Shown here one piece after another: positions 33,698-59,048 of a stretch of DNA of 62,259 bases. The translations under genes were made by a program, and so were the position numbers. A model generated the notes under the pieces. The model was not told the DNA's origin and did not search any database. It saw only the letters and a list, made by a program, of their open reading frames with translations. The first letter of the stretch is position 1, and the number at the start of each line of letters is the position of its first letter. The stretch is from a virus (lineage: Duplodnaviria; Caudoviricetes): positions 1 through 62,259 of IMG/VR virus record IMGVR_UViG_3300013132_000055. One strand, given 5' to 3'.

Positions 33698-35881
33698 ATG
33701 AGCATCGACGGAGACCGTCAACTATCACAGTTCGTGTCAGACAGGCTCCCCGAGTTCGTGCGGGTGGATCATCCCACGCTCGTCGCCTTCATGGCTGCGT
33801 ACTACGAATGGCTCGGTCTGCGGAGGAATCAGGGGAAGATCGTGTCGCCGCTCGACATGAAAGAGATCCCCGACATCGATACAACCCTCGACCAATTCGT
33901 TGAAAAGTTCAAGGCTGAGTACCTCCTCAACTTCCCCGAGTCTCTTGCGGTCAATCCCGACACGGGAAATCTCGTTGACCCGAGGAGACTCGTAAAGAAC
34001 ATCAAGCAGTTCTACCTCGCCAAGGGCACGGAGAAGTCATACGAGTTCTTGTTTCGTATCCTCTATGACACGGCGGTCGAGTTCTACTATCCCAAGAAGG
34101 ACATCCTGCGGCTCTCCACGGGGCGTTGGACACAGAACAACTACCTGAGGCTGTCGAATGCCTTGGGCGACAGCATCTACAGGGCTGCGGGAAACACCGT
34201 GGTTCAGCGTAACGCAGGGGGACAGATCCTCGCCACGGCGAGGTGCGTCGAGGTCAGCGTCTATCAGGTCGGCAACTTCGATGTGGCGGAGATGCTCATC
34301 TCGGGCAGGAACGGCACATTTCAGGCGGGTAACCTCGGGATTGAGTTCACGGACGGCGACGAAACCTTCCGTGAGGTCAAGGTGTACAGCGTCATCTCGT
34401 CGGTCTCGGTCACTAACGGCGGAGCCGACTATCAGGTGGGCGAGAAGGTGACCTTCGTGCCTGTCGGCAGCGACAGCGGTCAGAGGGGATCGGGAACGAT
34501 CACCGAGGTGGACAGCCTCGGAGGCATCCGAAAGATCAACATCGATGACTTCGGCATCAACTATCAGGTGGTGCCGACAATCTCAATCGCAACGAGCAGG
34601 GGAACGGGCTTCTCGGGGGCGGTCACGGTCGGGGCTCTGGCTCAATCTGCGGGGTTCTATGCCAACAACGACGGTCGCCTCAGCACCAACAAGGTTCTTC
34701 AAGACAACAAGTACTATCAAAATTGGTCGTATGTCTTGAAGAGCGAGGTCGTGATCGACAGGTACAGGGAGATCGTTCGCCGACTCGTCCATCCCGTGGG
34801 AACAGCCATGTTCGGCACGGTACTCATCAAGCGTTGCGCTCATACCGATCTTGAAAATGCGTCGAGCCTCGTTTCCTACGAGGTTCCGATCATCGGGCAC
34901 TACATCCCATACACATTCCGTACCTTCGATGACCTGTCGGCATGGTTTATGACAGGGATCACGGGAGGCATGACCGCTGCGGGTTACAACCCCTCGTTCC
35001 ACGACATCTACATCAAGGGAGAGGGTGACGGGCTCGTAGTGGGCGGAAATCCGATCAGCAACAACATCCCGTTTGCTGCGACAGGTGGGGCGTTTGGACT
35101 GACGGGATTCCGAAATGCAGACCCATTCTGGATCGTCTACAAGCACCCGAACCTAAAGGTCAGCGGGGAGAAGCACATCGCCAAGATATGGACTACACAG
35201 ATCAGCGATTTTTTGACATGGGATGAATGGGATCTCTCCTCCGATCCCGACAATCAACAGAGGATCAATGAGTGGGTCAAGGAACTCAACGATAAGACCG
35301 CACCTGACGGTACTGAGAATGCCTGTTGCAAGGGATCTTGCTGCCGAGGTGAACTTTACAGGGAACCCCACGACTTCAACTACGCATTGCTGAACTACAA
35401 CGAGGACAGCGAGTTTCGCAAGATCACCGCTCGGGCTTTCTTCAACATGCCCATCGGACAACCCTTCGATTGCCGCACGGAGAGTTTCCCTACGCTTGCC
35501 GTGCCGAAGTTCAGCATGATTCAACCACTATCGGGTGGGACGGTGAGGAACACATCGGCACCCGTTGGGACATCTCCTGCCGACTATGACTTCTTTAGGA
35601 CCCTTACGGTTCGGTTCAACATCGACAACGGCGACAATCTCTCGCTCTCTCAGATCGGTGCCGAGAAGATCAGGGTCGTGTTGGACGGCAAGAAGACCGT
35701 TGATGTCGGTCTCAACTCACGCAGCATTAGGTTCGGCAAAGTGAGGGATGGGAGGCATTCTTTGAGGCTTGAGATCCTCGACTCAAGGAATAGGCTCATC
35801 GCAGGTACGAGGGAGATCGTCATCTTCGCCTACGAGTTCGTTCCCCCGCAGCAGGTTCCGACCCCATCTACAGAGGCATAA
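33698..35881 (+). CDS. Baseplate wedge initiator (gp7-like)
   Basis: LPEFV...P..V.F..AYYEW, FY.AKGT..S..FLFR.L, QD..YYQ..SY.L, VHP.G..FG. Confidence 0.8.
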   Translation: MSIDGDRQLSQFVSDRLPEFVRVDHPTLVAFMAAYYEWLGLRRNQGKIVSPLDMKEIPDIDTTLDQFVEKFKAEYLLNFPESLAVNPDTGNLVDPRRLVKNIKQFYLAKGTEKSYEFLFRILYDTAVEFYYPKKDILRLSTGRWTQNNYLRLSNALGDSIYRAAGNTVVQRNAGGQILATARCVEVSVYQVGNFDVAEMLISGRNGTFQAGNLGIEFTDGDETFREVKVYSVISSVSVTNGGADYQVGEKVTFVPVGSDSGQRGSGTITEVDSLGGIRKINIDDFGINYQVVPTISIATSRGTGFSGAVTVGALAQSAGFYANNDGRLSTNKVLQDNKYYQNWSYVLKSEVVIDRYREIVRRLVHPVGTAMFGTVLIKRCAHTDLENASSLVSYEVPIIGHYIPYTFRTFDDLSAWFMTGITGGMTAAGYNPSFHDIYIKGEGDGLVVGGNPISNNIPFAATGGAFGLTGFRNADPFWIVYKHPNLKVSGEKHIAKIWTTQISDFLTWDEWDLSSDPDNQQRINEWVKELNDKTAPDGTENACCKGSCCRGELYREPHDFNYALLNYNEDSEFRKITARAFFNMPIGQPFDCRTESFPTLAVPKFSMIQPLSGGTVRNTSAPVGTSPADYDFFRTLTVRFNIDNGDNLSLSQIGAEKIRVVLDGKKTVDVGLNSRSIRFGKVRDGRHSLRLEILDSRNRLIAGTREIVIFAYEFVPPQQVPTPSTEA

Positions 35882-35891
35882 GTAATCTGCC

Positions 35892-38237
35892 ATGCCATCG
35901 TCTTGCGACCCATTCCGACAAAATCACAAGCGAATCACCGCAGATGCGCTGTTCGCCATCTACAGCGACACCGATGACAAGAACCTGTTCCTGTCCATCG
36001 GCAAGATCACGGGTTGGTCGGGTCTCGGAACGGATGAGAACCCTCCGACGAGCATTGACAGCGTCAAGGATGACACGGAACTTTGGAGGGGCATCTTCGC
36101 ACACAAGAGGATCGACAGGTCGGATGTCTCCCTCGTCGTGCGGAGGTACGATTGGAAGCCCTTCGTTGTCTACACCCCATATCGGGACGATCTCGACCTT
36201 TTCGATGACTTCGATCCCGCCCCATTCTACGCCCTCGTTGACGATGAGAGGGTGTACAAGTGCATCGACAACAACAACGGTGGACAGTCCCTCGTTGCAC
36301 CCACCCACACCGATAGTCAGATCCGCAGGTTGAGTGATGGGTATCGGTGGAAGTTCCTCTATCAGATCGCCGAGTCGAAGAGGAAGTTTCTGACGAAGAC
36401 TCAAGGCGATGCCATCGGGTACATGCCCGTTGAGTATGTCGATTATTTGCGCCTCAACGACGAGCGCATCCTGCAATGGAACACACAGCAAGCGGCTGTG
36501 GACGGTGAGATCGCCTTCGTCAAGGTGAATCCCGATGTCAAGCCTTTCGTGGTGTCCGACACATGCCTGTTCGCTAGTGCCAACAACACGGTGGTCGCTG
36601 ATGTCGCCTTGGGAGCCACGGGTATCACCCTGACCTCTCCGAGCCTCATCCTCAAGCCGAACTACTACAACGACATGGTTCTGTCCATCGACAGCGGTCA
36701 GGGGCAGGGTCAGCGCAGGAGGATCTCCACCTTCACTCCATCAGGAGGAGGTGGTGCAGCATTCATCACTACTGTAGATCCCTTCTCGACTAGCGTTTCG
36801 GGTGGAGGTAATGCAAGCACTTTCTCCATCGTCCCGAATATCCGAGTTGTCGGGGACGGAAACTCGTATAGCAACTCATACAATCCCTACACCAAGGCTG
36901 CGGAGGTTTCGGTGCGCTTCGGTGCGACGGCGGATTTCAGCGTGGTCGGTGCGACCTCATGCGCCGATTTCTTTGAACTCCGCCGCCTCGTTGACTCCAT
37001 CGAACTCGTTGACGGCGGCAGGGATTACACCTTCGCCGACCTTGAGTTCATCAAGGGGCTTGTGGTTCCTACCGACAAGGTTTTCCTTGACGATCTCGCC
37101 GAGGCGATCATGTCTCCTCCAGGAGGTCACGGATCGAATCCCGTCAAGGAACTCGGATGCTCCTCTATCATGGTCTCCAAGGAGTACTCTCAGGACGAGG
37201 AGGGCAAGGTCAGCACACAGAACGAGTACCGTCAGTTTGCAGTCCTCCTCAATCCCCTCCTCGCCGAGAAGCAGGTGCGGCTGAAGTTCTTCGCCACGGG
37301 AGTGAGCGGATCATTCACGGTTGGTGGAACCGCAGGACAGGCAGCGACAGGTGGATTTAGCGGTGCTTACGGAGATGTGGTCTCTTGGAGGGCGGGTGCT
37401 TCGGGTCACAGCGGCACGAACGAACTCGTACTCACCGAGATCAGGAACGGCGACTTTGAGTACGGTGGGAATGTCGGGGGACTGACCACGATGTCGGTCG
37501 ATGTCCGAACGATTGCGGGAACCGAGTCGAGAAGGCTTCTCAGGCTCACCCTCGCACCAACCGATCCCGCCTTCTCGGGTTCCGCTACCGACTTCACCAA
37601 GGGATACCTCGTCCACGGAATCGGGGATTGGTCAACCTCGACCTTCGCTTCCCGAGCGGTTGGCGAGGTCTACGCATGGGAGCCTCAGGTGGGGTCGAAC
37701 ATCCTCGGATTCCTATACCTTGAGAATCCGCAGGGTGCTTTCAAGATCAACGAGCGTGTCTCTCAGACGGACTTGTTCTACTCGGACTACAGCAGGGGAT
37801 TGAGCGGCATCGGTCAAGTCAGGGCAATCGACACGGTCATCAGGCAAGGCGTGGACACCTACGACCAAACCACGACCCTCGTCATGTCCTATGACGGAAG
37901 CAACTTGTTCAAGACCACCTCGTTCCTAGAGGATGCGTTCAAGGATTTCATACTTGGTGCCACGGCTTCGGCGAACGGGTATGTGATGGATTGGACACTC
38001 GGGGGCACAGGCACCACGGGAACCCTCAGGGTCTCGGGCACTCAGGGGATCTTCAGCACGGGCATGACGGCATCATACGGACTCACCACGGATACCAATC
38101 TCGCCACGATCACGCAGGTCATCCATACCGCTGAACTCAAGTACCGTTCGGGAGAGGTTCTATACATACAGAACATGAAGCCGATCCAAAGAGATCTTGA
38201 GCAACGGGAAGAGATCAAGATCGTCATCGACTTCTAA
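35892..38237 (+). CDS. gp8: Baseplate wedge subunit (gp8-like, extended)
   Basis: R.DW...Y..Y, VYKCIDN, DGY.WKFLY, P.GGHG.N...EL, SGEVLY.....I.R...Q.E.IK.V..F. Confidence 0.85.
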   Translation: MPSSCDPFRQNHKRITADALFAIYSDTDDKNLFLSIGKITGWSGLGTDENPPTSIDSVKDDTELWRGIFAHKRIDRSDVSLVVRRYDWKPFVVYTPYRDDLDLFDDFDPAPFYALVDDERVYKCIDNNNGGQSLVAPTHTDSQIRRLSDGYRWKFLYQIAESKRKFLTKTQGDAIGYMPVEYVDYLRLNDERILQWNTQQAAVDGEIAFVKVNPDVKPFVVSDTCLFASANNTVVADVALGATGITLTSPSLILKPNYYNDMVLSIDSGQGQGQRRRISTFTPSGGGGAAFITTVDPFSTSVSGGGNASTFSIVPNIRVVGDGNSYSNSYNPYTKAAEVSVRFGATADFSVVGATSCADFFELRRLVDSIELVDGGRDYTFADLEFIKGLVVPTDKVFLDDLAEAIMSPPGGHGSNPVKELGCSSIMVSKEYSQDEEGKVSTQNEYRQFAVLLNPLLAEKQVRLKFFATGVSGSFTVGGTAGQAATGGFSGAYGDVVSWRAGASGHSGTNELVLTEIRNGDFEYGGNVGGLTTMSVDVRTIAGTESRRLLRLTLAPTDPAFSGSATDFTKGYLVHGIGDWSTSTFASRAVGEVYAWEPQVGSNILGFLYLENPQGAFKINERVSQTDLFYSDYSRGLSGIGQVRAIDTVIRQGVDTYDQTTTLVMSYDGSNLFKTTSFLEDAFKDFILGATASANGYVMDWTLGGTGTTGTLRVSGTQGIFSTGMTASYGLTTDTNLATITQVIHTAELKYRSGEVLYIQNMKPIQRDLEQREEIKIVIDF

Positions 38238-38246
38238 GGTGAACAG

Positions 38247-43393: not shown

Positions 43394-43399
43394 CCGTAG

Positions 43400-46300
43400 A
43401 TGTCCTGCACAGCATCAGACTTCGTCAACATCCAACCCCTGACCCTGTCGGACACCTTCAACACTTGGTTCGACAGGACCAATGAGGTCATCGCCGCAGC
43501 GAATGGGATCAACATCCTTGATGTGGTGGCGGGACCCACGGCGGGTGGTCTGATCCGTGAGACGGGATGCTCGGCGGGATACTACAACGGCGTGGTCACC
43601 CTTTCGGTGAATCCAGGCGCAGGTATCGGCATCGGCACCGAGGCGTTCGATGGCAACTTCAACGAGGTCGTGATCGATGCTGTCAGGCTTGAGAACCTCG
43701 GCACGGGATCGACGGCGAATCCCGCTGTCGGCGACTACATCATCGTCAGCGACATCAGCGACACCCGTCAGGGCTCTGCGGGAACCCCGAAGCGCACCGT
43801 TGCTAGCAGGATGCTCCCTTCTGCCGTTTACTTCGGTGATGCGGGAGAAGGCACCTTTGAGATATACGGCGATGTCACCATTCACGGCGACATCAACATC
43901 GAAGGCGACCAATCGTACATCGATGCCAACGATCTCCGCATCGAAGACAAGATCATCGAACTCGCCTACAACAGGTACTCGCAGTTCACCATCCAAAAGA
44001 CGGGTATGACTGCGGGATCGTTCGATGTCGGTGCGACCGCCTACTACATCGATCCAGGTTCCGCCACCCTCACGGCGAACTCGACCACCATCGGCTACAT
44101 CCGAGCGTTCACTTACTCGGGAAGCACCACGGGCTCGGTGCAGATGCACTCGTTCAACGAGGGCGGCGTGTCCGACATCGTCAACGGCGGCAGTCTCTAT
44201 GTGGACGGTGCTTCGCTGACCTTCGATGTCACCTCGGTACCGTTTACGGACACGGCGTTCTACAACGACACGCTCCTGACCCCCGCAGGAATCGACATCA
44301 AGGGCGCATCGGGCGACAAGACCTTCCTTTGGAACCTCAAGACCCCCGACACTCTCTCGACTTGGAACGCCTTCGTTGCGAACACCAACCTTGGCGTGAC
44401 GGGTGCGGCGAACTACATCATCTCGTCCAAGTTCGCATCGTTCGGATACGGCGCAGGTACGGATGACACCTACACCTTCTACGGTGCAGGAGACTCGTTC
44501 ACCAAGGCTGCGGTCGGCACGGAACTCGTCCTTCAGCACAGCGCAACGGGCGAAGCGGGGATCACCTTCGCACAGGTCTTCTCGGGCAGCACGGGTCCCG
44601 CAGTCTACCCTGGGGTCACGGCGACCAATTGGTCGAAGTACCTCAACGCCGACCAACTCGACGGTGCCCACGCACTCACCACCTCGACTGCATGGTCGAT
44701 CCCCGTGGCACTCGCCAACGGCAAGATCCATGAGGATTGGGTCAACTCCGATGCGATCCGCAAGACCTTCTCGCAGACGGGTCACTCGTTCGTCATGGGC
44801 GACATCCTGCGGTTCGACACGAATGGATCGCTGACTTTCGCCCGTGCAGACACAATTCCGACCGCCGAGGCACTCGGCATGGTCGAGGTCGCCTCGGGCA
44901 GCACCCTCACTCTCGTCACCAAGGGCTTCATCTCGGGGCTCACGGGTACGAGGATCAACGCACTCAAGCCCCTCGTCACGGGCAACGCCTATTACCTCAG
45001 TCAGTCCGTTGGTGGCGGTATGATCACCAACCCCGACTCGGGCGCATACGAGATCACGGCGGGTCAAGTCCGAAAGGCGATGTTCATCGCCTCGGGCATC
45101 GACAAGGGATATGTGGTCAACTACACGGGCGTGGTGGTTGGCAACGACCCCACCGACCTGATCTACCTCAGCCGTGTCGCTCCCGTGGGAAGCGTCCATC
45201 CGTTTGCGGGACTGACCTCGGCGATCCCCGATGGTTGGCTCCTCTGCAACGGTGCTGCTGTCGGAAAGAACGATCAGTCGGATCTCTTTGCAGCCGTCGA
45301 GAACACATACTTCGCTGATGCGGAGGTGTACGACTCGTCCACTCTCACGATGGACGGGGACACCCGTACCCTCGCAGCGGGAGACGCTGTTTATGTGACA
45401 TGGTCAACGGGCAGCGCAAACCTGATCATCTCATCGGTGAACACAGGAAACCGAAGGATTGGTTTCCCCGACACGCCGTTTGCTGACCTTCCACAAGGAG
45501 CAAATCTCAATGTCTACGGCAGGACTGTTGCATCGACGGTCGGACGCTCGGTGTTCTTCCTTCCCGATCTTCGCCGCAGGACGGTGTTCGGAACCTCGTT
45601 CGGATCGGGACTTGCGGGTAGTGGCAACCTTACTCCTTCCCTTGCCCTCGGCAATGTCGGTGGAGAGCATGAGGTCACCCTCTCGTCCAACAACATCCCC
45701 CCGCACACACATTCCCTAGACACCACGGTCAGGAGCGATACGAGCGGGATCTACGGATCCTCCTCGACGCAGACGGGGGCTCTCCTCGGATCGGGAGAGG
45801 ATCCCGCAGCATTCGGCATCCTCCCTCCGCATGTGGTGATGCACTACATCATCCGTGCCAAGAAGGGCGTGTCGGCAACGATCCTCACGGGTCACAATCA
45901 CGACAATCAGTACATCAGGTACAACATTCCGCACACCACGGGTGCGGGTGCGGGTAGGACTCTCACCGATTCCGACAGGGTTCAGTTCCGCAGCAACGCA
46001 CAAGTTCTGCGCAACGACGGAGACGATGTCTTCCGTGGAACCCTTGAGATCACGGGTAGTCTCCGTGTCGAGGACAATGTCTCGGTCACGGGAAGCGTCT
46101 CGGTCGTGGAGGACCTCTCGGTGGGCGATGCACTCACCGTTGGAGGGGTGTCTCGGTTCGACGCAGCCATGAAGGTCACGGGTGGTTCGATCACCATCGT
46201 GAACGCCACGGGTGCCAAGGAATGGAGCAATTACTCACCGCTCAACAACGGATCTTCCCAATGGAACGATGCTGGAATGAGGATTGTTGGTGGTAGTCTC

Positions 46301-47041: not shown

Positions 47042-47382
47042 TGGCCGAAACCATCAACAGGGACATGGATCAGGGGGCGAACTTCTTGTTCGACTATGTG
47101 GTCAAGGGGACCAACGGTCAGCCCACGGACATCTCCACGGGTCACACCGCTTATGCGCAGATGAGGAAGTTCTACTCCTCCTCCTCCGCTGTGAACCTCA
47201 CGGCTTCGATCACGGGAAGCACGGGGAACATCCGTGTCTCCCTTGGTGTCACGGGCACGGCTGCTGTCAAGGCGGGCATCTGGTACTACGATGTTGAACT
47301 GCACTCCAACGGCAGCGCAACTGTCACTCGGCTCGTTCAGGGCATGGTGACGGTCTACCCCGAGATCACGAAAATCCCGTAA
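47041..47382 (+). CDS. Small virion structural protein
   Basis: N...DQGA.F, AQMRK.Y.S, G..YYDVE, R.VQG...V.P..T. Confidence 0.8.
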   Translation: MAETINRDMDQGANFLFDYVVKGTNGQPTDISTGHTAYAQMRKFYSSSSAVNLTASITGSTGNIRVSLGVTGTAAVKAGIWYYDVELHSNGSATVTRLVQGMVTVYPEITKIP

Positions 47383-47459
47383 CCCATAGTCTTTTCCCAT
47401 GCTTCGCATCGGAGCCTCCATACATACGGGCACAACCCGTTTCGTAATGGAGATCTGAA

Positions 47460-48662
47460 ATGAGCGAAGCATTGATGATTGAAGCACCCGCTGCCCCCGT
47501 CGCCGCAGCCCCCTCGGTTCCCGCACCGAGCAAGCACAAGACCCTCACCCTCTGCATGATCGTGAAGAACGAGGCGCATGTCATCGAACGATGCCTTGCC
47601 TCCGTCCTGCCCGTGATCGACTACTGGGTGGTCGTGGACACGGGATCCACGGACGGCACTCAACAGAAGATCAAGGATTTCTTCGACCGCAACGGGATCA
47701 AGGGCGAACTCCATGAGCGTCCGTGGCTCGACTTCGGTCACAACCGCAGCGAGGCTCTTGAACTCGCACAGAAGACCGACACCGACTATGCCCTGATGAT
47801 CGATGCGGACGAGATCCTTGTCTTCGATCCAGGCTTCGATCCCATGGCGTTCAAGGACAGCCTTACCGCCGACCTCTACAACATCTTTGCACAGTTCGGG
47901 CAGACCCGATACCACCGCCCCCAACTGACGAGCAACAAGAAGCGGTTCTACTACCGTGGCGTTCTCCATGAGTATGTGGATTGCCACGATCCAATCGGTA
48001 CCCGTGACTTCGTCCGTGGGTTTATGAACACCCCGATCCAAGACGGTGCCCGCTCGTCCGATCCTCAGAAGTACGCCAAGGATGCCCTCAAGTTTGAGGA
48101 AGCCCTCGCCTCGGGCAAGGTCGAGGAGAAAGACATCAACCGCTACCACTTTTACATGGCGCAGTCGTACCGTGACTCGCAGCAATGGGAAAAGGCACTT
48201 GGGTGCTACCTCAAGAGGGCTGACCTCGGCGGATGGAACGAGGAGGTCTTCTACTCGCTGTATCAGGCGGGTCGCATCATGGAGATCCTCGAAAAGTCCG
48301 TGGATAACATCATTCAGGTCTACTTCAAGGCGTATCAGACCGCACCGTGGAGGGCTGAGAGCCTTTGGGCTGCGGCTCGTCTCTGCCGTGCGTTCAGCCG
48401 CTTCGACCAAGGCTACCGCTTCGCCAAGCAGGGTCTCAAGATCCGTTACCCCGAGGGTGCGCTCTTCGTCGGTCAGGGGATCTACGAGTGGGCACTCCTT
48501 GACGAGTTCGCCATCGCCTCTTACTGGACGGGTCACTACCGTGAGTCGAGGATCGCCTCCATCCAACTCCTCAAGGATGGGAAGTTCCCTCCCGATCAGA
48601 AGGAGCGGATCGAAGCGAACATGAAGTTCGCCACGGATTCCCTCCTCAACGAAGGGGAGTGA
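47460..48662 (+). CDS. GT2-family glycosyltransferase with C-terminal TPR-like repeats
   Basis: LCMIVKNE...I.RCL.S, VDTGSTDGT, DFG.NR, DADE (DxD), G.LHE, FY.AQSY.D. Confidence 0.92.
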   Translation: MSEALMIEAPAAPVAAAPSVPAPSKHKTLTLCMIVKNEAHVIERCLASVLPVIDYWVVVDTGSTDGTQQKIKDFFDRNGIKGELHERPWLDFGHNRSEALELAQKTDTDYALMIDADEILVFDPGFDPMAFKDSLTADLYNIFAQFGQTRYHRPQLTSNKKRFYYRGVLHEYVDCHDPIGTRDFVRGFMNTPIQDGARSSDPQKYAKDALKFEEALASGKVEEKDINRYHFYMAQSYRDSQQWEKALGCYLKRADLGGWNEEVFYSLYQAGRIMEILEKSVDNIIQVYFKAYQTAPWRAESLWAAARLCRAFSRFDQGYRFAKQGLKIRYPEGALFVGQGIYEWALLDEFAIASYWTGHYRESRIASIQLLKDGKFPPDQKERIEANMKFATDSLLNEGE

Positions 48663-48668
48663 CATCCG

Positions 48669-48675: not shown

Positions 48676-48711
48676 GGTGGCGGTTCACCAAACAGTCAGG
48701 AATCACCACCG

Positions 48712-51700
48712 ATGGCATACAGCGCAATCCCAATTTTCCCTAGCGGCGGCGGCGGGGACGGACGCAGGATCCTCAACACTTGGGCGGTCCCTGGGGGGCA
48801 TCCGTTCGATGTGGGTCATGTGGTCCTCTACACCGCAGGGGTGACGGGATTCCAACTCGGGATCGCAGACGATCTCGACATGGCTCAGACTGTAGGCATC
48901 GTTGAGGCGACCACCACCGAATCCATAACTGTCGTCTATCAGGGCGAGATCGACTTCGCAGGATCTTCGCTCCTGATAGACGATGGCTCTATTAGCCTCA
49001 CGGCGGGACTCGTCTACTACCTCTCGCCGACCAACGAGGGCTACCTCACATCCGTTCGTCCGCTTGACGGCGCATCGTTCGTGCAGGGTGTCCTCGTCGC
49101 CACCGACACGCATGAAGGCATCGTTATCAACTCGCTGCCTCAGGCACCGACCACGGCATCCCTCTACACGCCCGTGGGATCCATCGTCCCGTTTGCGGGT
49201 CCGTACAGCGAGATCCCCGAGACTTGGCGCATCTGCGACGGTGCGGCGGTCAGGAAGTCGGGTGCGACCCCGTTGGATGGCGAGACATACGACAGTCTCT
49301 ACGGTGTCATCGGCGACAAGTACAAGGTCACGGGACTCGTCTCCGACCTGACGGGTCCTGTCAGCAACATCTATCGGGATGTCATCATTTCCTTCTCGCA
49401 GGAAGGACATGAGGACTACTCGGGAACGACTGCACATGGTCTGCTCGACGCATACGATGCCGATACGCATAAGCAATACAAAATCGGTTGGGGTGGGACA
49501 AACGACTTCGCAGTCGCCGCCCTGACCGCAGCCTCGACCTCCACGGTGAGGTTTCACTTCCTCGCACCCTACACGGGTACGAGCGTGGTCAACTTCAGCG
49601 GGGCATCGGTCAACGCTCCGATCACGATCCAATCCCTCGTTGACGGGGAGGTGGCGGGATATACCTCGCAGAGGTTCTTTATTCCCGACCTCCGAGCGAG
49701 GACTGTGTTCGGTGCGGGATATTCCGTGGGACTCACGGGAACGAACCGTGGCGAGATCAAGGGCGAGGATCTCTACCTCCTCACCACGGATGACATTCCT
49801 GACCACATCAACAAGGTCTACACCTATCCGACGAATCCTGCTCCTGATGCGGCTGGCGGCGGAACGAATGTCGTTGCGCTCATCGCCGACAGGGACAACT
49901 GCGACATCGTTCAGGCAATCGTCCACGATTCTTCGTTCACCGCCGACAATGATCCGATCAACCTCTTGCCTCCCCATGTGGTGACCAATTGGATCATCCG
50001 ACACCGTCCGTTTGAAGGGCCTGGAGTCGAGGTTGGTCCCCGTGGTCCGCAAGGTCCTGCGGGTCCGCAAGGTCCTGCGGGTGATACGGGTGCCACGGGC
50101 GCAGACGGTCCTGCGGGTCCTGCGGGTCCCACGGGTCCCACGGGTCAAGATGGTGCCACGGGTGCCACGGGCGGAGATGGCCCTGCGGGTCCTGCGGGTC
50201 CTACGGGTCCTGCGGGGGAATGTGATTGCAGCGGTTGCCTCCAAGGGGGAGGACCGCTTCCCGACAAGAGCATCTATCTCGCCGCCACATCGCAGTACAA
50301 GGACGGGAACATCGGAGACGCATCGGGGACCATCCTTGAGGAGCAGATCTCGACCGATCCCCTCTACCCCACCGATTTCGCATATGCGATGTCCTCGTTG
50401 ACCGTGACGGGCACGAACATCGAAAGTCCTGCGACTTTCTACTACCGTGACCCTGCCAACAATCCCAACGAACAGACCTACGCCTACGCTCCGACTCGTC
50501 AGTATTCTCCACATCCGACCACGGGTCTCGTTCGGGGTACGACGATCAATGCGGCGATCATTGCGGGGGAGGCACCAACGGGTCCTACCACCTGTGGTGG
50601 TGGACTCGCAAGTCCATTTGAGATCATCCTACAGAATGGTGTGTACACGCTCGACAAGAGCATCTACACCAACCTGCCCCGTGACCTCTATATCGGTGGT
50701 CAGACGGGAAGCGTCATCAATCAGACGGTCTCGGGTGTCACCGTACTCCCTGTACTCAATGCGGGTGCGACGAGCATGACCGCATTCTCGTTGCAGTTCA
50801 ACATCGGCACGGGGCAGTCGATGATTGCCGCAACAGGAACCGCCATCGTCATTCCTCCGCCGAACAGCATCGTCTACGGTTCCATCCCATCGGCAACGGG
50901 GATGTACGGACTCACCGCCACCATCGAAGGTGCGACGAGCGGCACGGCGGGATTCTTCAACTCGCTTGCGGGTGGGTATGTGGTCAAGGGAATCAGCGGA
51001 CAGACCCTCACGGTCGATGTCCTCACCGAGGGAGGAGTGACCTCCAACTTCGGCAACTTCTTCAACCAAACTTATCAGCGGTACATCAACAGCATCGATG
51101 TCTACCGTGTCACGGTTCACACCACCTCGCAGGACGGCATCTTCTTCTCGGAGAAGGGCACCCGAACCTACTTCGGGGATTCGACGGTGGCAGTCAACGG
51201 AGTGCAGTTGGGAGGCATCGCCTTCGTCAACGATGCCACGGGCACGGCACTCAACGATGCGAGCCTGTCGGGCTTCGCACCGAGCGGCTACTACAGCAAT
51301 GTCAGGGGTCTTGAGACGGACGGCGGACTGATCAAGGCAAGCGGTTGTGTGTTCATCAACTACCCGATTGCGGCACACGCATTCAACGGTGGTTCGGTGA
51401 CCCTCAACCACTCGTATGTCAGCAACTCCTACTACGGTGTTGCCGTGGACAGCGGGGCGAACGCCAAGATCGAAGGCAGCGTCATCTCCCATTCCGCCAT
51501 TCCCGTGATTGCGGAGGGTGCGGCGAATGTCAAGATCAGCCACGATCTTGGTCATGTCGGCAAGAGTCACATGATCGCCAACAAGGGCGGCATCTGCGTT
51601 GTCAACACCCCATTGGAGATGGGAAGCACCCGTGTCTTCGGACCTGGTGTCTATGCCGAGAACTCAAGCGTGAAGATCAAGCCGTTCACCGAGATCTACT

Positions 51701-52017: not shown

Positions 52018-52020
52018 CCC

Positions 52021-52428: not shown

Positions 52429-53197
52429 GATCAACATCGCCGACGAACAACTTGAGGACCGCATCAACGATGCCCTTCAGTTCTTCAGCGAGTATCACTT
52501 CGACGGCGTGGAGAAGGTCTACCTGAAGTACAAGTTGTCGCAGACCGACATCGACAACGGGTACATCTCCTTCGTCGCCGACAACAGGCAGTCGCAGACC
52601 GCCGATGGTTCGGGTTTCATCGACGGGGATGCCGTGCAGACGAGCATCGATCCCGACTGCCCCGAGAATGTTCTCCTACAGAGCCTCATCGTCAGCGTGA
52701 CGAGGATCTTCCCGTTCACGCAACAGTCTGTGGGCATGTTCGATGTCCGCTATCAGTATGCCTTGAACGACCTCTACACCTTCGGCACCATCGACTTGGT
52801 GCAGTACGACATGACGCAGCAGTACCTCCAACTGTTGCGGCAGTTCCTCTCTCCCGACAAGAGCGTCCGATTCAATAGGGTCGCCAACAAACTGTACATC
52901 GACAGCGACAAGCGGCAGTTCACGGCGGGAATGTACCTCATCATCGAAGCCTACCGAATCCTCGACCCGAGGGTGTACCCCGAGGTATACAACGACCGCT
53001 TACTCAAGAAGTACTGTGTGGCACTCATCAGGTGGCAATGGGGTGTCAACTTGTCGAAGTACAGCGGGATCAAGTTACCAGGAGACATCACCCTCGACGG
53101 ACAGAGCATGATGAAGGACTCTTGGCAGCAGAAGGAAGACATTGAGAAGGAGATCATTCTGAAGGGCGAGTTGCCCGTTGACTTCATCATGGGCTGA
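52343..53197 (+). CDS. gp13: Neck protein
   Basis: LK.Y.LR..G.PV..INI..EQ.EDRI..ALQ.F.EYHFDG, QWG.NL.KY.G..LPG. Confidence 0.95.
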   Translation: MSNCTSGLISTRAELKEYALRANGHPVVEINIADEQLEDRINDALQFFSEYHFDGVEKVYLKYKLSQTDIDNGYISFVADNRQSQTADGSGFIDGDAVQTSIDPDCPENVLLQSLIVSVTRIFPFTQQSVGMFDVRYQYALNDLYTFGTIDLVQYDMTQQYLQLLRQFLSPDKSVRFNRVANKLYIDSDKRQFTAGMYLIIEAYRILDPRVYPEVYNDRLLKKYCVALIRWQWGVNLSKYSGIKLPGDITLDGQSMMKDSWQQKEDIEKEIILKGELPVDFIMG

Positions 53198-53205
53198 AAG
53201 GAAAT

Positions 53206-54099
53206 ATGGCACTCAATCCGTACATCAGGGTCAACAGCAAGACCTATGTCCCCGAGCAGAGCCTCATCGATGAACTCACCGTCGAGGCGATCAAGATCTA
53301 CGGACATGAGATGTATTACATCCCTCGGGACTTGGTAACAAGGGACGATCTGTTCGGGGAGTCGAAGTACTCACGCTTCACCTCGTTCAAGATGATTGAG
53401 ATGTACATGGACACCACCACCGCCTTTGAGGGCGGGGACACATTCACGAAGTTCGGCTTTGAGATCAGGGACAGCGTCAAGTTCACCGTGTCCCGCAGGA
53501 GGTTCAAGAGAGAGACGGGCAAGGACAGGCCCCTTGAAGGAGATCTGCTGTTCCTTCCGATCAGCAAGGGTCTCTTTGAGATAAAGTTCGTGGAGCATGA
53601 GAACCCCTTCTACCAGTTGGGCAAACTCTACTCCTTCCAGTTGACATGCGAACTGTTCCAATACTCGGAGGAGGAGTTCGATACGGGTGTTCCCGAGATC
53701 GATGCCATCAACGAGGAGACGGGGTTCAAGGTCAATCTCGACTTGGGGGCGTTGTATGGAGGAGGAACTTTTGCAGAAGGCGACAGCGTATATCAATACG
53801 AGGATGGTTCGCCTACAGGACCAACTGCGGGAGCATCTGCGAGGGCGGTGGTCTTCTCGTATGACGCATACGCAGATCCGCTCCGAGTATCTCTTTCCGA
53901 TGTTGTTGGTACTTGGATCTCGGAGACCTCCTCGGGAGCGACCGCATACATAGCCAAGTCGAACAACTCCGTCTACGCATCCATTTCGGGCAAGGATGAC
54001 ACCATGGGCATCCTTGACGAGGCGAAGAACGATGCCATCCAAGAGGAAGCCGAGGGAGTCTTCAACTTCGATGAGGAGAACCCGTTCGGGGATCCGTGA
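53206..54099 (+). CDS. gp14: Neck protein
   Basis: EQ.L...L..E.IKIYG...YYIPR, KFG....D, RP.EGDL, FVEHE.PFYQLG, F.E.NPFG. Confidence 0.95.
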   Translation: MALNPYIRVNSKTYVPEQSLIDELTVEAIKIYGHEMYYIPRDLVTRDDLFGESKYSRFTSFKMIEMYMDTTTAFEGGDTFTKFGFEIRDSVKFTVSRRRFKRETGKDRPLEGDLLFLPISKGLFEIKFVEHENPFYQLGKLYSFQLTCELFQYSEEEFDTGVPEIDAINEETGFKVNLDLGALYGGGTFAEGDSVYQYEDGSPTGPTAGASARAVVFSYDAYADPLRVSLSDVVGTWISETSSGATAYIAKSNNSVYASISGKDDTMGILDEAKNDAIQEEAEGVFNFDEENPFGDP

Positions 54100-54102
54100 T
54101 TT

Positions 54103-54954
54103 ATGCTTGAGTACTACTACCACAGCACCGTCAGGAAGGTCGTGGTGGGGTTCGCCTCGCTGTTCAACGACATCTATGTCTCAAGGAAGGGACAGTCGGG
54201 TGCGGAGACCGAGAGGATCCGTGTCCCCCTTGCCTATGGACCGCAGCAGAAGTTCCTCCGCCGCCTAGACAGGATCGGCACCGACTTCGATCAACAGGCT
54301 GTGAGGCTTGAGACCTACCTGCCGAGGATGTCGTTTGAGATCAACTCTCTACAGTACGACTCCTCTCGCAAGTTGAACAGCATTCAACAGACGGTGGGGT
54401 ACAACGCTTCGGCTGACAACAAGTTGAAGCGGCGGTACGAGCGTGTTCCGTACAACATGCAGTTGACTGTCGGGGTGATGACCAAGACGATGGATGACTG
54501 CCTACAGATCGTTGAGCAGGTCCTCCCGTACTTCACCCCCGAGTATGTCTTCACTATCAAGGCAATCGATGGTCTCGACATGGATGTCGATGTGCCCATC
54601 GTGATCTCCTCGGTCAGCCTCACCGAAGGCGACGATGGGTCATATGGCGACTACTCGACCCGAAAGATCAACTTCGCCAACATGGCTTTCCAAGCCAAGA
54701 TGTACCTCTACGGACCTGTCAAGACGGTGCCCGTGATCACACAGGCGCAGGTCAACTTCTTCGACTTCGGCGACTACGGCAAGGAAAGGGACACCCTCAA
54801 GAAGTACGCCGACATCAGCGTCACGGCGGCTGACGGGATCACGGCGGGCAGTTACGCACCGTCCCTCACGGCGGGTTGGACGGGTGCGGGTGCGACCCAT
54901 GCGAATGTGTTCATCCGTGAGTACCCGCCGACACCGTGGGGAACCACGGGATGA
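54103..54954 (+). CDS. gp15: Tail sheath stabilizer / tail terminator
   Basis: YH...RK.V..F..LFN.I, VPLAYGP..KFL, LPRMSFE, QI.EQ.LPYF.P. Confidence 0.95.
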   Translation: MLEYYYHSTVRKVVVGFASLFNDIYVSRKGQSGAETERIRVPLAYGPQQKFLRRLDRIGTDFDQQAVRLETYLPRMSFEINSLQYDSSRKLNSIQQTVGYNASADNKLKRRYERVPYNMQLTVGVMTKTMDDCLQIVEQVLPYFTPEYVFTIKAIDGLDMDVDVPIVISSVSLTEGDDGSYGDYSTRKINFANMAFQAKMYLYGPVKTVPVITQAQVNFFDFGDYGKERDTLKKYADISVTAADGITAGSYAPSLTAGWTGAGATHANVFIREYPPTPWGTTG

Positions 54955-55439
54955 CAGGAGACAGCGTGAACGACATCGACATGAACATAGCGAGTGCGCT
55001 AGGAATAGACCCCTCCCGTGCGCCCGTGCCCATACACACGCCCGAGCCCCCACCCGAGCAGGAGATTCTCCCCGCAAGGCAGGGGGGCTACACGGCTCAG
55101 GATGCCGACAGGGACTATGCCGAGGTCCGCCGCAACCTCAAGGTGGTCATTGAGAAGTCTCAAGAAGCCATCGAAGGCATCATCGAACTCGCACAGGACA
55201 GCCAGCAGCCCCGAGCCTACGAGGTGGTGGCGCAACTCATACAGTCGAACCTTGAGGCGAACACCCGACTCATGGACCTTCACCGCCGCATGAAGGACAT
55301 CAAGCGGCAGGATGTGGTCAACAAGACCACGAATGTCACGAACAATTCCATCTATGTCGGCAGCACCGCTGACCTACAGAAGATGATCCGTGACCAAAGG
55401 AAGGCTATGGATTCGGGCGAGGAGTCCGCCCATGAGTAG
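54951..55439 (+). CDS. gp16: Terminase small subunit
   Basis: DY...R.NL, PRAYEV, TNN...VGST.DLQK. Confidence 0.93.
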   Translation: MTGDSVNDIDMNIASALGIDPSRAPVPIHTPEPPPEQEILPARQGGYTAQDADRDYAEVRRNLKVVIEKSQEAIEGIIELAQDSQQPRAYEVVAQLIQSNLEANTRLMDLHRRMKDIKRQDVVNKTTNVTNNSIYVGSTADLQKMIRDQRKAMDSGEESAHE

Positions 55440-57114
55440 CGACGGAACCTACATGGGAAACCCCCTTCTCAAGGGGGAGTATGTCCAACAGGAGTTCACG
55501 AAGGACCAACTCGCCGAGTACATCAAATGCTCCGAGGACCCCGTCTATTTCATCGAAAACTATGTCAAGGTCGTGACCATCGATTCGGGACTCGTTCCGT
55601 TCAAGATGTACGATTGGCAGAGGAACATCGTCAGGTCGGTCTTCGACAACCGTTTCGTTATCTGCAAGATCCCCCGACAGAGCGGCAAGACCACCACCCT
55701 CGTCTCCTGCATTCTCCATCTCGTCCTCTTCAATCCCGACTACAAGGCGGCGATCCTCGCAAACAAGTTGAAGACGGCGACCGAGATCATGGACAGGGTG
55801 AAGATCGCATACGAGAACCTTCCGAAGTGGTTGCAGCAGGGCGTGAGGGAGTGGAACAAGACTTCCGTCACCCTTGAGAACGGGTCCAAGATCGTCTGCT
55901 CGTCCACCTCGTCATCCGCCGTGCGTGGCTCGGCGTACAACTTCCTGCTCCTAGACGAGTTCGCCTTCGTCCCCGACCAGATTGCCGAACAGTTCTTCGC
56001 CTCCGTCTATCCGACGATCACTTCGGGAAAGACCTCCAAGACGGTCATCGTGTCCACCCCGAACGGGCTGAACCTGTTCTACAAGATGTGGCAGAACGCT
56101 AAGAACGGGAAGAGTGAGTTCAAGCCCGTCGAGGCGAATTGGTGGCAGGTTCCAGGTCGTGACGCTCGGTTCAAGGAGACCACGATCAGGAACACATCCG
56201 AGCGGCAATGGCTGTCGGAGTACGAGTGCGAGTTCCTCGGATCACAGGAGACCTTGATCAAGGCATCCAAGATCGCATCCCTTGCATTCACCACCCCGAT
56301 CCTTGAGACCGAGGAGGGCATGGCGGTCTACGAGAATCCCATGAAGGGGCACATCTACGCCGCCACGGTGGACTCCTCACGGTCCATCGGGCAGGACTAC
56401 AACACGATCACGGTCATTGATGTGACCTCCGTGCCGTACAAGGTGGTCTGCAAGTTCAGGTCGAACACCATTCCCGTGCCGATCTTCCCCGAGGTGATCA
56501 AGCGGGTGGGGGACAAGTACAACGAAGCCTATGTCCTAGTCGAGATCAACGACACGGGGCAGCAGGTAGCCGACATCCTCAAGGATGACTTGGAGTACGA
56601 GAATGTCATCTCCATCTCCATCAAGGGCAAGAAGGGGCAGCGGGTCGGCGAAGGCTTCGGCGGGGCGAGGATCTACAGCGGTGTCAAGATGTCCGCTCAG
56701 GTCAAGAAGGCAGGATGCCTGATCCTGAAGGAGATGATCGAATCGGACAAGTTGATCCTCAACGACTTCGACATCATCTCCGAACTGTCCACCTACATCC
56801 TCAAGGCGGGGTCATACGAGGCTACCGAGGGGTACAACGACGATCTCATAGCCACCCTTGTCATGTTCGCATGGCTCACCACGCAGGAGTACTTCAAGGA
56901 CCTTGTCAACCTAGATGTCCGTAAGCGGGTCTTTGAGGAGAAGATCAGGAAATTGGAGGAGGACATGGTCCCCTTCGGCTTCATGGACATGGGAATGGAC
57001 GAGATGGACGAGGCTGTCAAAGCCCTGTCGAGCGAACCGAGCATGACTCCGAAACCGTCCAAGAGGAACAGGTCTTGGATGGACGATGCCGACGAGATCC
57101 TCGGTCAGCCTTGA
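55432..57114 (+). CDS. gp17: Terminase large subunit
   Basis: Y.GNP.LK, C..DP.YF..NY, PRQSGKTT, LDEFAF, STPNG.N.F. Confidence 0.97.
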   Translation: MSSDGTYMGNPLLKGEYVQQEFTKDQLAEYIKCSEDPVYFIENYVKVVTIDSGLVPFKMYDWQRNIVRSVFDNRFVICKIPRQSGKTTTLVSCILHLVLFNPDYKAAILANKLKTATEIMDRVKIAYENLPKWLQQGVREWNKTSVTLENGSKIVCSSTSSSAVRGSAYNFLLLDEFAFVPDQIAEQFFASVYPTITSGKTSKTVIVSTPNGLNLFYKMWQNAKNGKSEFKPVEANWWQVPGRDARFKETTIRNTSERQWLSEYECEFLGSQETLIKASKIASLAFTTPILETEEGMAVYENPMKGHIYAATVDSSRSIGQDYNTITVIDVTSVPYKVVCKFRSNTIPVPIFPEVIKRVGDKYNEAYVLVEINDTGQQVADILKDDLEYENVISISIKGKKGQRVGEGFGGARIYSGVKMSAQVKKAGCLILKEMIESDKLILNDFDIISELSTYILKAGSYEATEGYNDDLIATLVMFAWLTTQEYFKDLVNLDVRKRVFEEKIRKLEEDMVPFGFMDMGMDEMDEAVKALSSEPSMTPKPSKRNRSWMDDADEILGQP

Positions 57115-57127
57115 AAACGGACAGAGG

Positions 57128-57134
57128 CTAAATA
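57128..57134 (+). promoter_or_regulatory. Late promoter CTAAATA for gp18
   Basis: Intergenic GGCTAAATA, then AAGGAG RBS. Confidence 0.8.
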
Positions 57135-57167
57135 CCCCCGTTCAACCTATCCAAGGAGAGAGCAGAC

Positions 57168-59048
57168 ATGGCATTCCAACTCAGCCCAGGCGTGAATGTG
57201 ACCGAGCGGGACCTCACGACGATTGTTCCCGCCGTCGCCACCACCAATGCGGGTATCGTGGGTCTCTTCAACTGGGGTCCCTGCAACAAGCGGATCCTCG
57301 TTGACAGCGAGAACAACCTCGTTCAACTTTTTGGCGCACCCGATGACAATGTCGCCGAGTGGTGGTTCCCCGCCGCAAACTTTCTTGGCTACGGCAACAA
57401 CCTTCAGGTGGTCCGTGCCACGATCAACGGCATGATCAATGCTAATGGCAGGGGCTTCACGGGAGGCACGGCGGATAACTCCGACGATGCCTTGGTCGAG
57501 AACGATGACAAGGTCGAATTCGTGACCGTGGACAACATGGGATCGTTCATCGCCCGTTATCCAGGTGCCCTCGGCAATAGCCTTGAGGTGCAGATCTGCG
57601 GTTCGTTGTCCCTTACCGCCGTGTCCAACATCACGGGTGGCTTCACCGCTTACGGTGCCGACTTTGAGGATTGGACCTATGCAACCCAGTTCGATTCCCG
57701 CCCGACCTCCACCTCGTTCATCGAAGGCATCGGTGGTTCGGGTGACGAGTTCCACGCCGTGGTCATCGACCGCAAGGGTCTGATCTCGGGCACCCGTGGC
57801 GAGATTCTTGAGAAGTTCCAAGGCATGTCGTTCCTGCCGAATGTCACCGATTCCCTCGGCAACAGCATGTACTATGTGGACAAGATCAATCGTGAGTCCA
57901 AGTACATCTTCGCCATTGAGAAGTCTGGAGCGAACGACTACGACGATCTCTTCCTCGGTGGCACGGGCCCATGGGGCAACACCGCAGTCAAGACTTGGTA
58001 CTTGGCGGGTTCTCTCAGCACCACCTCGGGTATCACGGCATCGAATGTCTCGTTCGGTGTCGGCGTGTGGCAACTCGGTGCGGGTTCGGACGGTCTGACC
58101 GCCGAGCAGACGGAGTACCTCAAGATCGCCTTCGGTCAGGATTCCGATGCGGATCCCGAGGGATATCGCCTCTTTGAGGATGCGGAGACCGTGGATGTCA
58201 ACCTCCTCATCGGTGGCCCTGACAGGAGTTTTACCCCTTCGACCGACCTCACCACGGGTCTCACGGGCTTCGTTGCCCCCCTCATCAAGGACATCGTGGA
58301 TGCCCGCAAGGACTGCGTTGCCTTCTTCTCGGTTCCGAACAAGGACCCGAATGAGACGGATCAGCGCAAGTTGGACCGTGCGATCCAATACCGCAACAAC
58401 ATCGGCTCGTCCTCGTACTGCGTGATCGACTCGGGTTACAAGTACCAGTACGACATTTACAACGACAAGTACCGTTGGGTGCCGCTGAACGCCGACATCG
58501 CAGGTCTCTGCGCTCGTTCGGATGTGAACTTCGACCCGTGGTATAGCCCCGCAGGTTTCAACCGTGGTCAGATCCGTGGCGTGGTCAAGTTGTCCTTCCA
58601 ACCCCGTCAGGCAGCAAGGGATAGCCTCTATAAGAGCGGCATCAATCCCGTTGCCACCTTCTCGGGAGAGGGCACCGTCCTCTACGGCGACAAGACCGCC
58701 CTCGCCAAGCCCTCGGCATTCGACCGCATCAATGTGCGCCGTCTGTTCATCGTGCTTGAGAAGGCAATCTCGACGGCATCGAAGTACAGCCTGTTTGAGT
58801 TCAACGATGCCTTCACCCGTGCGCAGTTCCGCTCGCTTGTCGAGCCGTTCCTCCGTGATGTTCAGGCTCGCCGTGGCATCTTCGACTTCAAGGTCGTGTG
58901 CGACGAGAAGAACAACACCCCCGAGGTGATCGACAGCAACAGGTTCGTCGCCGACATCTACATCAAGCCGAACCGCAGCATCAACTTCATTCAGTTGAAC
59001 TTCATCGCCACCAAGACGGGCGTGAACTTCAGCGAGGTCGGTGCCTGA
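57168..59048 (+). CDS. gp18: Tail sheath protein
   Basis: SPGV.V.E.DLT, ARYPG..GN, W.SPAG.NRG, FDRINVRRLF, IKP.RSINFI.LNF.A. Confidence 0.97.
   Translation: MAFQLSPGVNVTERDLTTIVPAVATTNAGIVGLFNWGPCNKRILVDSENNLVQLFGAPDDNVAEWWFPAANFLGYGNNLQVVRATINGMINANGRGFTGGTADNSDDALVENDDKVEFVTVDNMGSFIARYPGALGNSLEVQICGSLSLTAVSNITGGFTAYGADFEDWTYATQFDSRPTSTSFIEGIGGSGDEFHAVVIDRKGLISGTRGEILEKFQGMSFLPNVTDSLGNSMYYVDKINRESKYIFAIEKSGANDYDDLFLGGTGPWGNTAVKTWYLAGSLSTTSGITASNVSFGVGVWQLGAGSDGLTAEQTEYLKIAFGQDSDADPEGYRLFEDAETVDVNLLIGGPDRSFTPSTDLTTGLTGFVAPLIKDIVDARKDCVAFFSVPNKDPNETDQRKLDRAIQYRNNIGSSSYCVIDSGYKYQYDIYNDKYRWVPLNADIAGLCARSDVNFDPWYSPAGFNRGQIRGVVKLSFQPRQAARDSLYKSGINPVATFSGEGTVLYGDKTALAKPSAFDRINVRRLFIVLEKAISTASKYSLFEFNDAFTRAQFRSLVEPFLRDVQARRGIFDFKVVCDEKNNTPEVIDSNRFVADIYIKPNRSINFIQLNFIATKTGVNFSEVGA

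Follow-up and report, generated by a model that had tools for sequence, protein, structure and literature searches.

In the 62,259-nucleotide viral record IMGVR_UViG_3300013132_000055 (positions 1 to 62,259, the whole stretch being called the window here), a 62-kb fragment of a T4-like myovirus with a GC content of 54-60%, the motif G-x-T-[G/A] occurs about four times as often as expected on the outward-facing proteins of the tail, baseplate and fibres. The motif consists of Gly, any residue, Thr and then Gly or Ala, and is written G.T[GA] below. Its enrichment is limited to one T4-like clade and to the exposed virion proteins of that clade. An open reading frame (ORF) for a glycosyltransferase (GT), 47460-48662, resembles the protein-modifying enzymes SgtA and SunS. 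On the sequence evidence we lean, if only slightly, towards G-x-T-[G/A] being an O-glycosylation sequon read by this enzyme; the sequon would best be described as G-[hydrophobic or small]-T-[G/A], in which Ser could replace Thr. Given this enrichment on exposed proteins and the presence, amid the fibre genes, of a gene for a protein-glycosylating type of enzyme, the virion may be coated with sugar.

Frequency and specificity of the motif

Counts are given throughout as observed versus expected. The initial annotation of the window had named ten ORFs as carriers of the motif, designated here by their first positions: 540, 33698, 35892, 38247, 43400, 47041, 48712, 53206, 54103 and 57168. After masking of collagen-like tracts of at least four G-x-y triplets, 7125 residues are left in these ORFs and G.T[GA] occurs 55 times. 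Shuffling of whole proteins predicts 12.5 occurrences, and shuffling within blocks of 40, 20 or 10 residues predicts 13.8, 14.7 and 16.5; in every scheme, 0 of 2000 shuffles attained 55. The excess is therefore not explained by Gly and Thr content alone, the control that the initial annotation had proposed. The remaining 27 ORFs (10610 residues) hold 7 motifs versus 6.1-6.5. All tetrapeptides listed in the annotation are present in the ORFs to which they had been assigned, and the proteins in which it had called the motif scarce or absent (NrdJ, gp46, gp47, UvsW, the large terminase and the portal) contain 0 each.

Among all patterns of the type a.bc with more than three occurrences, the strongest are G.TA (28 versus 6.7) and G.TG (27 versus 8.2). 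All three fixed positions are needed, since the reversed and the incomplete counterparts sit at expectation: the reversed [GA]T.G is found 17 times versus 14.7 in the ten ORFs, G.T followed by a residue other than Gly or Ala 51 times versus 58.5, and.T[GA] preceded by a residue other than Gly 116 times versus 115. With a hydrophobic residue at x, the count is 36 versus 6.8. Residual collagen periodicity was considered as a cause and rejected. Motifs that are not collagen-like, having no Gly at -3 or +6, number 42 versus 11.6, the maximum of 1000 shuffles being 25, and G.TA is enriched as much as G.TG.

Relatives of the window and selection on the sites

In the counts over relatives a homologous site is scored repeatedly, and these counts are not independent. 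ORFs in these loci were called mechanically (longest ORF, greedy), a procedure that put an antisense ORF in place of the window's own sheath gene, and the tables by protein family use BLAST labels. Among relatives in IMG/VR, gp8, VrlC, the gp7-like protein, the fibres, the sheath and gp15 are enriched about threefold. The 28 clade loci centred on gp8 hold 484 motifs versus 162.5, whereas 50 outgroup loci hold 283 versus 278.6; the ratio is roughly constant when gp8-centred loci are taken singly. By family, VrlC counts are 172 versus 43.9 in the clade and 92 versus 81.6 in the outgroup, and those of gp8 are 137 versus 34.2 and 60 versus 56.9. The clade's gp7-like proteins have 45 versus 18.0, its homologues of fibre 43400 have 87 versus 36.6, and ten clade homologues of the small ORF 47041 (orf47041) together have 32 versus 2.8.

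Loci centred on the sheath gene give a similar gradient: 125 versus 44.7 at a sheath identity of at least 67%, 132 versus 50.3 at about 48-55%, and 199 versus 172.3 in more distant loci. In the two near groups, gp14 has 7 versus 1.6 and 7 versus 3.0, and gp15 has 12 versus 1.7 and 24 versus 3.7 (5 versus 4.1 in the distant group). The tube (0 versus 2.8 and 0 versus 3.7) and the portal (0 versus 1.6 and 0 versus 1.7) of the same two groups lack the motif. The inner baseplate of the clade (gp5, gp6 and others) has 9 versus 22, the scaffold and prohead protease 0, and the large terminase and gp13 almost none. The capsid protein of the clade has 2-3 versus 0.6-0.9. A generic trait of T4-like or collagen-bearing fibre proteins was ruled out as the source by the outgroup counts, by the homologous proteins of Synechococcus phage S-SM1 (41 versus 30.1) and by collagen-bearing ORFs from T4-like loci without a visible GT gene (13 versus 21.9, n=15).

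Two side observations concern this distribution. Small ORFs of 119-167 amino acids (aa) between portal and prohead protease are rich in the motif, with 2-4 versus 0.3-0.5 (L003:6814-7704, L016:6803-7162, L009:7470-7859 and 46802-47305 of contig G011); they may encode head decoration proteins. Four loci filed with the gp8 outgroup on the basis of full-length matches at 26-29% identity are enriched as well: L117 (18 versus 6.7), L119 (18 versus 7.5), L130 (11 versus 5.7) and L131 (8 versus 3.6). They resemble the lineage of G011, a contig described below.

Individual gp8 sequences contain 3-8 motifs in the clade and 0-4 in the outgroup. Near-motifs of the outgroups in core columns of the gp8 alignment are matched by exact motifs in the clade; at one such position, for instance, 24 of 26 sequences read GATA where the outgroups read GALA or GASA. 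The sites had initially been placed mostly in lineage-specific insertions, which is partly right; it does not hold for gp8, six of whose seven window sites fall in columns filled by 36-45 of 45 outgroup sequences. The sheath, in 32 clade sequences, has 36 distinct motif columns of which 15 are singletons, and this number of columns and singletons indicates a turnover of sites. All of these columns lie within window residues 85-366, which we take, from the T4 literature, to be the outer domains, the conserved core at either terminus being free of them. A model of the window sheath with a mean confidence score (pLDDT) of 74 aligns with T4 gp18 (3foa; Z 27.7, root-mean-square deviation 2.7, 349 residues aligned). 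In the secondary structure of this model the eight sites are found in coil, in isolated bridges (two motif Thr) or at a helix start (one). The contexts differ, so there is no single structural context for the motif.

The Thr position is informative about the chemistry that may be under selection. In the clade, G.T[GA] is enriched 3.49-fold and G.S[GA] 2.17-fold, versus 1.21-fold and 1.22-fold in the outgroup. Other substitutes are not raised in the clade (G.V[GA] 0.66-fold, G.N[GA] 0.92-fold; Ala and Asp likewise), and G.C[GA] is found 0 times versus 9.5. It appears that the hydroxyl group is what matters, since the rise is shared by Ser and Thr but not by Val, which is isosteric with Thr. V, L, A, I and T predominate at x, and charged residues are avoided in the flanks. 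The proposal of the initial annotation that the motif reflects selection for a recognition or modification site and not a bias of composition thus gains indirect support: the bias is excluded by the shuffles and the specificity of the pattern, and the comparative data concur.

The glycosyltransferase gene and its surroundings

The product of ORF 47460-48662 matches the Pfam families PF00535 (2e-10; 41.3 bits versus a cut-off of 23.3) and PF13704 (4e-8). Its DxD lies at D115/D117, and D60, D115 and D117 are invariant in 40 homologues. The best sequence matches in the PDB are GmaR (5e-8), the ThuS-like 7msk (4e-4) and SunS (5e-4). An AF2 (AlphaFold2) model with a pLDDT of 93.4 shows the beta/alpha strands of a GT-A domain at residues 29-192, ten paired helices at residues 204-399 (pLDDT above 90) and no membrane segment. 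In a Foldseek search with this model, SunS (7msn, 8e-15) and ThuS (7msk, 2e-14) come out on top and align over the full length, about 390 columns; the next family, wall-teichoic-acid enzymes, follows at 3e-7 with TM-scores of 0.32-0.35 of the query. Chains with tetratricopeptide repeats (TPR) are also among the Foldseek matches. The window enzyme itself has no Pfam TPR match at E<=0.01; Pfam TPR families are found in 3 of 120 homologues among the matches listed (P0116, P0119 and P0120) and in the protein of locus L226. A GT-A fold with DxD, a helical repeat domain and a neighbouring G-x-T collagen gene are all found, and point to the SgtA-like class of GT-A plus TPR protein O-glycosyltransferases.

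Homologues are numerous (3085 representatives at E<=1e-30), and fusions to additional GT, sulfotransferase, methyltransferase or TPR domains are common among them. Only five distant records were retrieved by tblastn against named phages. Identity of the enzyme across the clade is 60-95%, a stronger conservation than that of the sheath; in L022, for instance, identity is 76% for the enzyme and 53% for the sheath. Fibre gene 48712, which encodes a collagen tract, begins 50 nt downstream. A complex prediction for the enzyme and the orf47041 product, run without controls, gave no answer (score 0.00) and weighs neither for nor against binding.

All enriched contigs that include the fibre region also contain the GT gene (L005, L013, L019, L022, L026, L041 and L164-L175). 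It is found in none of 10 non-enriched T4-like contigs, including records with an estimated completeness of 91%, 85% and 70%; two of these are without any GT2 domain. Five short enriched outgroup fragments also yielded none, which is uninformative because they are only 11-30% complete. In 65 viral loci with a more distant GT (33-47% identity), the ORFs within 6 kb downstream of it carry 244 motifs versus 96.5 and those upstream 59 versus 57.2. Twenty-two of the 65 have an orf47041-like or collagen ORF downstream, and these show 221 versus 76.4. Matches to a hidden Markov model of orf47041 were obtained in 22 loci, in 20 of which the gene adjoins that of the GT. Both gene orders are seen, the homologue lying upstream of the GT gene in the clade and downstream in a second T4-like group, whose copies contain an additional loop, rich in Gly and Thr, that bears several motifs. 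Possible roles of the small protein are those of prime substrate, fibre tip or adaptor.

In a locus of this second group (L226:1359-9307), the GT-TPR gene and the fibre genes are immediately preceded by genes for glycan building, in a run closed by the GT-TPR gene. Among its members are a UDP-Glc/GDP-Man dehydrogenase, a carbamoyltransferase, a methyltransferase and GT10-, GT7C- and GT1/4-like genes. In contig G011 a diverged GT (39% identity) is encoded some 36 kb away from the sheath, and the total is 33 motifs versus 13.0. Enrichment is seen there in gp8 (5 versus 1.6), VrlC (9 versus 3.6), a fibre, gp15 and the sheath, but no motif occurs in the tube, portal or terminases. A homologue at 37% identity is encoded by the jumbo phage Tunturi_5, a few kb from a fibre gene with GPT/GAT-rich tracts.

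The association extends to bacteria. Among 80 bacterial loci with a GT at 36-48% identity, 40 have a G-x-y tract of at least eight triplets within 6 kb, a raw and uncontrolled frequency. Thr fills at least 60% of the Y positions in 25 of the 40. The longest tracts reach about 400 consecutive G-x-T triplets with Thr in more than 90% of Y (for example L247, L259, L310 and L322), and the bacteria include Alphaproteobacteria, Chlamydiae, Streptomyces and Polyangiaceae, among others. It must be noted that some tracts obtained by six-frame translation of GC-rich bacterial DNA may be out-of-frame artefacts (e.g. L274, L320 and L325).

The enzyme gene and the carriers of the motif in the window are collected in Table 1.

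Table 1. Positions of the candidate enzyme gene and of the motif-bearing features in the window (motif counts observed versus expected where both are given)
Feature	Position	Strand	Remarks
Candidate glycosyltransferase, 400 aa	47460..48662	+	GT-A (GT2) plus C-terminal TPR-like helical domain; between two fibre genes
Small beta-rich protein, 113 aa	47041..47382	+	3 motifs versus 0.26; phrog_1084, phrog_3304; neighbour of the GT gene, conserved
Fibre with collagen tract and collar domain, 1101 aa	48712..52017	+	directly downstream of the GT gene; 5 motifs outside the tract, 7 inside
Collagen-like tract, residues 442-504 of fibre 48712	50035..50223	+	G-x-T triplets, Y = Thr in 7
Fibre with tail collar domain, 1213 aa	43400..47041	+	9 motifs versus 3.2; PF07484 3e-8
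VrlC-like / DUF4815 structural protein, 1647 aa	38247..43190	+	10 motifs versus 2.1; PF16075 2.6e-55
gp8-like baseplate wedge protein, 781 aa	35892..38237	+	7 motifs versus 1.1; phrog_438 2e-63
gp7-like baseplate wedge protein, 727 aa	33698..35881	+	3 motifs versus 0.6; phrog_17744 3e-60
gp14-like neck protein	53206..54099	+	2 motifs, both in the C-terminal third
gp15-like tail sheath stabiliser	54103..54954	+	3 motifs within the final 40 residues
gp18 tail sheath protein, 626 aa	57168..59048	+	8 motifs versus 1.0, all at residues 96-367 (variable domains); phrog_23 1.7e-123
Collagen-like fibre-type protein, 454 aa	540..1904	+	7 motifs in G-x-y tracts, 5 outside

Fibre 48712 matches Pfam Collagen (PF01391) at 7.9e-8, with 32.4 bits versus a cut-off of 27.2; ORF 540 reaches 17 bits and stays under that cut-off. 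A shared inserted domain was ruled out, at the sensitivity of BLAST, as the cause of the common motif: no paralogous domain common to the carriers is detectable, and only the two fibres resemble each other. Family scans of the rest of the window identify replication and metabolism genes (NrdJ, gp46, gp47, UvsW and gp32), inner baseplate genes (gp5, gp6, gp48, gp53 and gp54), the peripheral gp7-like, gp8-like and VrlC/DUF4815 proteins with the two fibres, and neck, head and tail genes (gp13, gp14, gp15, small and large terminase, sheath, tube and portal). The portal is at most 56% identical to those of named phages, the top matches all being T4-like cyanophages of Synechococcus or Prochlorococcus, and megablast of the structural region against named phages gave no match at the DNA level. 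The small-terminase ORF, 54936-55439, is called from a GTG overlapping the end of gp15; its family match starts only near residue 52, and it contains 3 motifs. Two large ORFs are without a Pfam match: 17915-20752 (-), 945 aa, has 0 motifs versus 0.8, and 1923-3662 (+), 579 aa, has 2 versus 0.7. Very long antisense ORFs span whole structural genes (57147-59099, 47355-48665, 43415-45199 and 48703-50514, all on the minus strand), and the first of them, with 650 aa, exceeds the length of the sheath gene that it overlaps. The sense genes avoid the codons TTA, CTA and TCA, none of which occurs in gp18 or the GT gene; the long antisense ORFs are therefore an artefact of codon usage and not genes.

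Readings of the motif and known systems

If the motif is a sequon, the enzyme, as a soluble GT-A plus TPR protein, would work in the host cytoplasm during infection and use a nucleotide sugar. The sugar would be placed onto the Thr hydroxyl of the tetrapeptide on accessible loops. The substrate typical of the family would be the G-x-T-G unit of collagen-like fibres, and the clade would have selected single copies of a unit of this type on a range of unrelated, exposed proteins: fibres, the VrlC-like protein, gp7 and gp8, the outer sheath domains and the neck tails. Capsid and small head proteins probably also carry such units, and the particle would then be glycan-coated. A broader proposal, which is made tentatively and to which we give slightly less than an even chance, is that the whole T4-like virion is O-glycan-coated by one phage enzyme, its code having been scattered from the repeat of collagen fibres over every exposed protein, probably including the capsid. 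Together with the enzymes paired with (G-x-T)n proteins in many phyla of bacteria, this would amount to a single O-glycosylation system, cytoplasmic and widespread, that relies on a simple sequon.

Several points weigh against the sequon. The argument is built wholly from sequence statistics, fold similarity and gene linkage, and the reading of the motif by the enzyme, the modification of the sites and the nature of the sugar are matters of inference. The enzyme is not a member of the NCBIfam SunS equivalog TIGR04195 (31.1 bits, cut-off 350). The small terminase, a non-virion protein, has conserved motifs, with 6 versus 0.3 and 7 versus 0.4 in relatives. The other 43 of the 65 viral loci with a distant GT give 23 versus 20.1 and no nearby signal; Tunturi_5 has, outside its tracts, 4 motifs versus about 7.6; and the bacterial GT loci show no enrichment of the dispersed motif (218 versus 210.5). 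It may be that the enzyme family acts on tracts only and that something else reads the dispersed motif. The phage lineages that carry the GT are related and small in number (perhaps two or three), so that the joint occurrence of enzyme and motif represents few independent events. The evidence for exposure comes from the secondary structure of one sheath model of medium confidence (pLDDT 74). Finally, a hydrophobic x between uncharged flanks is also what one would expect of a structural element such as a strand or turn.

The enzyme might act only on the collagen-like G-x-T tracts of fibres, the dispersed motif having been selected for another O-linked modification such as phosphate, for binding of a decoration or assembly factor, or for contact with the host surface. 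The bacterial homologues beside (G-x-T)n genes without the dispersed motif would be accounted for, as would Tunturi_5, which has tracts alone, and a preference for Ser and Thr suits any hydroxyl-directed chemistry. This explanation seems unlikely, though, since SgtA accepts short linear peptides with a single G-x-T-G (PMC7157674), so that isolated units should be substrates. Moreover, dispersed enrichment tracks the GT in two diverged phage groups and the 10 non-enriched contigs are without it, and no other candidate modifying enzyme was found among the window ORFs scanned by family libraries. Slightly less probable again is a purely structural motif, a turn, strand edge or helix cap favoured by the virion proteins of this clade and read by nothing. 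Outgroup orthologues of the same fold do without it, Val is depleted and Ser enriched at the Thr position, the carriers have no paralogous domain in common (the two fibres excepted), the sheath sites turn over, and their secondary-structure context varies. The features that would suit such an element are the uncharged, alternating pattern with its hydrophobic x, the conservation of several sites in position, and the sheath Thr that lie in isolated bridges or start a helix.

An artefact at the DNA level, whether a nucleotide motif, a codon-context bias, slippage of collagen repeats or mosaic exchange of fibre genes, is largely refuted and is the least credible of the explanations weighed here. 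The codon of the motif Thr is ACG in 52 of 69 cases, and some sites are in tandem, such as two adjacent units in VrlC and in gp8. But ACG before G or A is favoured equally outside the motif (81/117) and in non-virion genes (49/74), the bias of ACG before G being a genome-wide, general effect of context. The DNA pattern GGNNNNACNG[GC] falls in frame 0 in 69 cases versus 13 in the five other frames together (4 and 2 in the other sense frames; 1, 2 and 4 in antisense). The signal is reading-frame specific and therefore acts at the protein level. In addition, G.TA, which is no collagen unit, is enriched as much as G.TG, and conserved core proteins carry the motif. GC content was likewise rejected as a cause, as enriched relatives range from 38 to 59% GC.

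To our knowledge, glycosylated virions are documented for very few phages, and we know of none among T4-like myoviruses. A search of literature listings and abstracts likewise found no glycosylated virion for T4-like myoviruses. GT genes of aquatic T4-like phages are usually read as altering the host surface or DNA (so in PMC12801897). If the sequon is real, a short signal written in the cytoplasm would explain these genes. It would also predict a glycan coat with effects on adsorption, host range and stability and on how grazers or antibodies recognise the particle, and would offer a simple tag for glyco-engineering.

The closest known system appears to be SgtA of Clostridioides difficile. 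As described in PMC7157674, SgtA is a 358-aa protein with a GT-A domain and four TPRs, its gene adjoins the GPT-repeat collagen-like gene bclA3, and it is involved in spore-surface glycosylation. It puts beta-O-GlcNAc (N-acetylglucosamine) on Thr, and also on Ser, of linear peptides of 12-17 residues, including some with one single G-x-T-G or G-x-S-G (PMC7157674). The window enzyme is similar in its N-terminal GT-A domain and C-terminal TPR-type repeats, in size (400 aa) and in the position of its gene beside a G-x-T collagen-like gene; SgtA is soluble, its acceptor unit is G-x-T-G and Ser is accepted. Comparison with the SgtA sequence was confined to the stretch encoded by a published primer, an N-terminus that by eye resembles residues 27-35 of the window enzyme (PMC7157674). 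Unlike SgtA, the window enzyme is carried by a T4-like phage and not by a spore former, and the proposed acceptors are isolated tetrapeptides on many non-collagen virion proteins, with G-x-T-A at least as frequent as G-x-T-G.

SunS and ThuS (7msn, 7msk) are the best full-length fold matches (TMq, the TM-score of the query, 0.6); they too combine GT-A with a helical repeat, and they modify ribosomal peptides. Their glycocin products are described in abstracts as O- and/or S-glycosylated. Here, in contrast, identity is only 14-17%, there is no Cys motif, and the proposed substrates are large structural proteins rather than bacteriocin precursors. GmaR (PDB 22ao, 7x9r) is the best sequence match in the PDB, although only about 95 residues align, over the nucleotide-binding half. 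Listeria GmaR is a flagellin O-GlcNAc transferase with a GT2 domain and TPRs that acts on Ser and Thr of an exposed filament protein, and it doubles as an anti-repressor. We know of no flagellin sequon of the G-x-T-[G/A] form.

Among phages, Freeman et al. reportedly found in 2023 that mycobacteriophage-encoded GTs decorate virion proteins, the sites being in C-terminal extensions of the capsid and tail tube proteins. Unlike the window phage, those are siphoviruses of Actinobacteria with different enzymes, and they are not known to use a dispersed four-residue motif. BclA of Bacillus anthracis is a collagen-like GPT-repeat filament of the exosporium whose Thr residues are O-glycosylated, with sites only in the triple-helical tract. 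It is like the window fibres in its G-x-T collagen-like repeats and unlike the dispersed motif in the confinement of its sites to the tract. By analogy with these systems, the kind of glycosylation proposed here is already known; what would be new is the dispersal of the acceptor unit of collagen-like glycoproteins over a phage particle.

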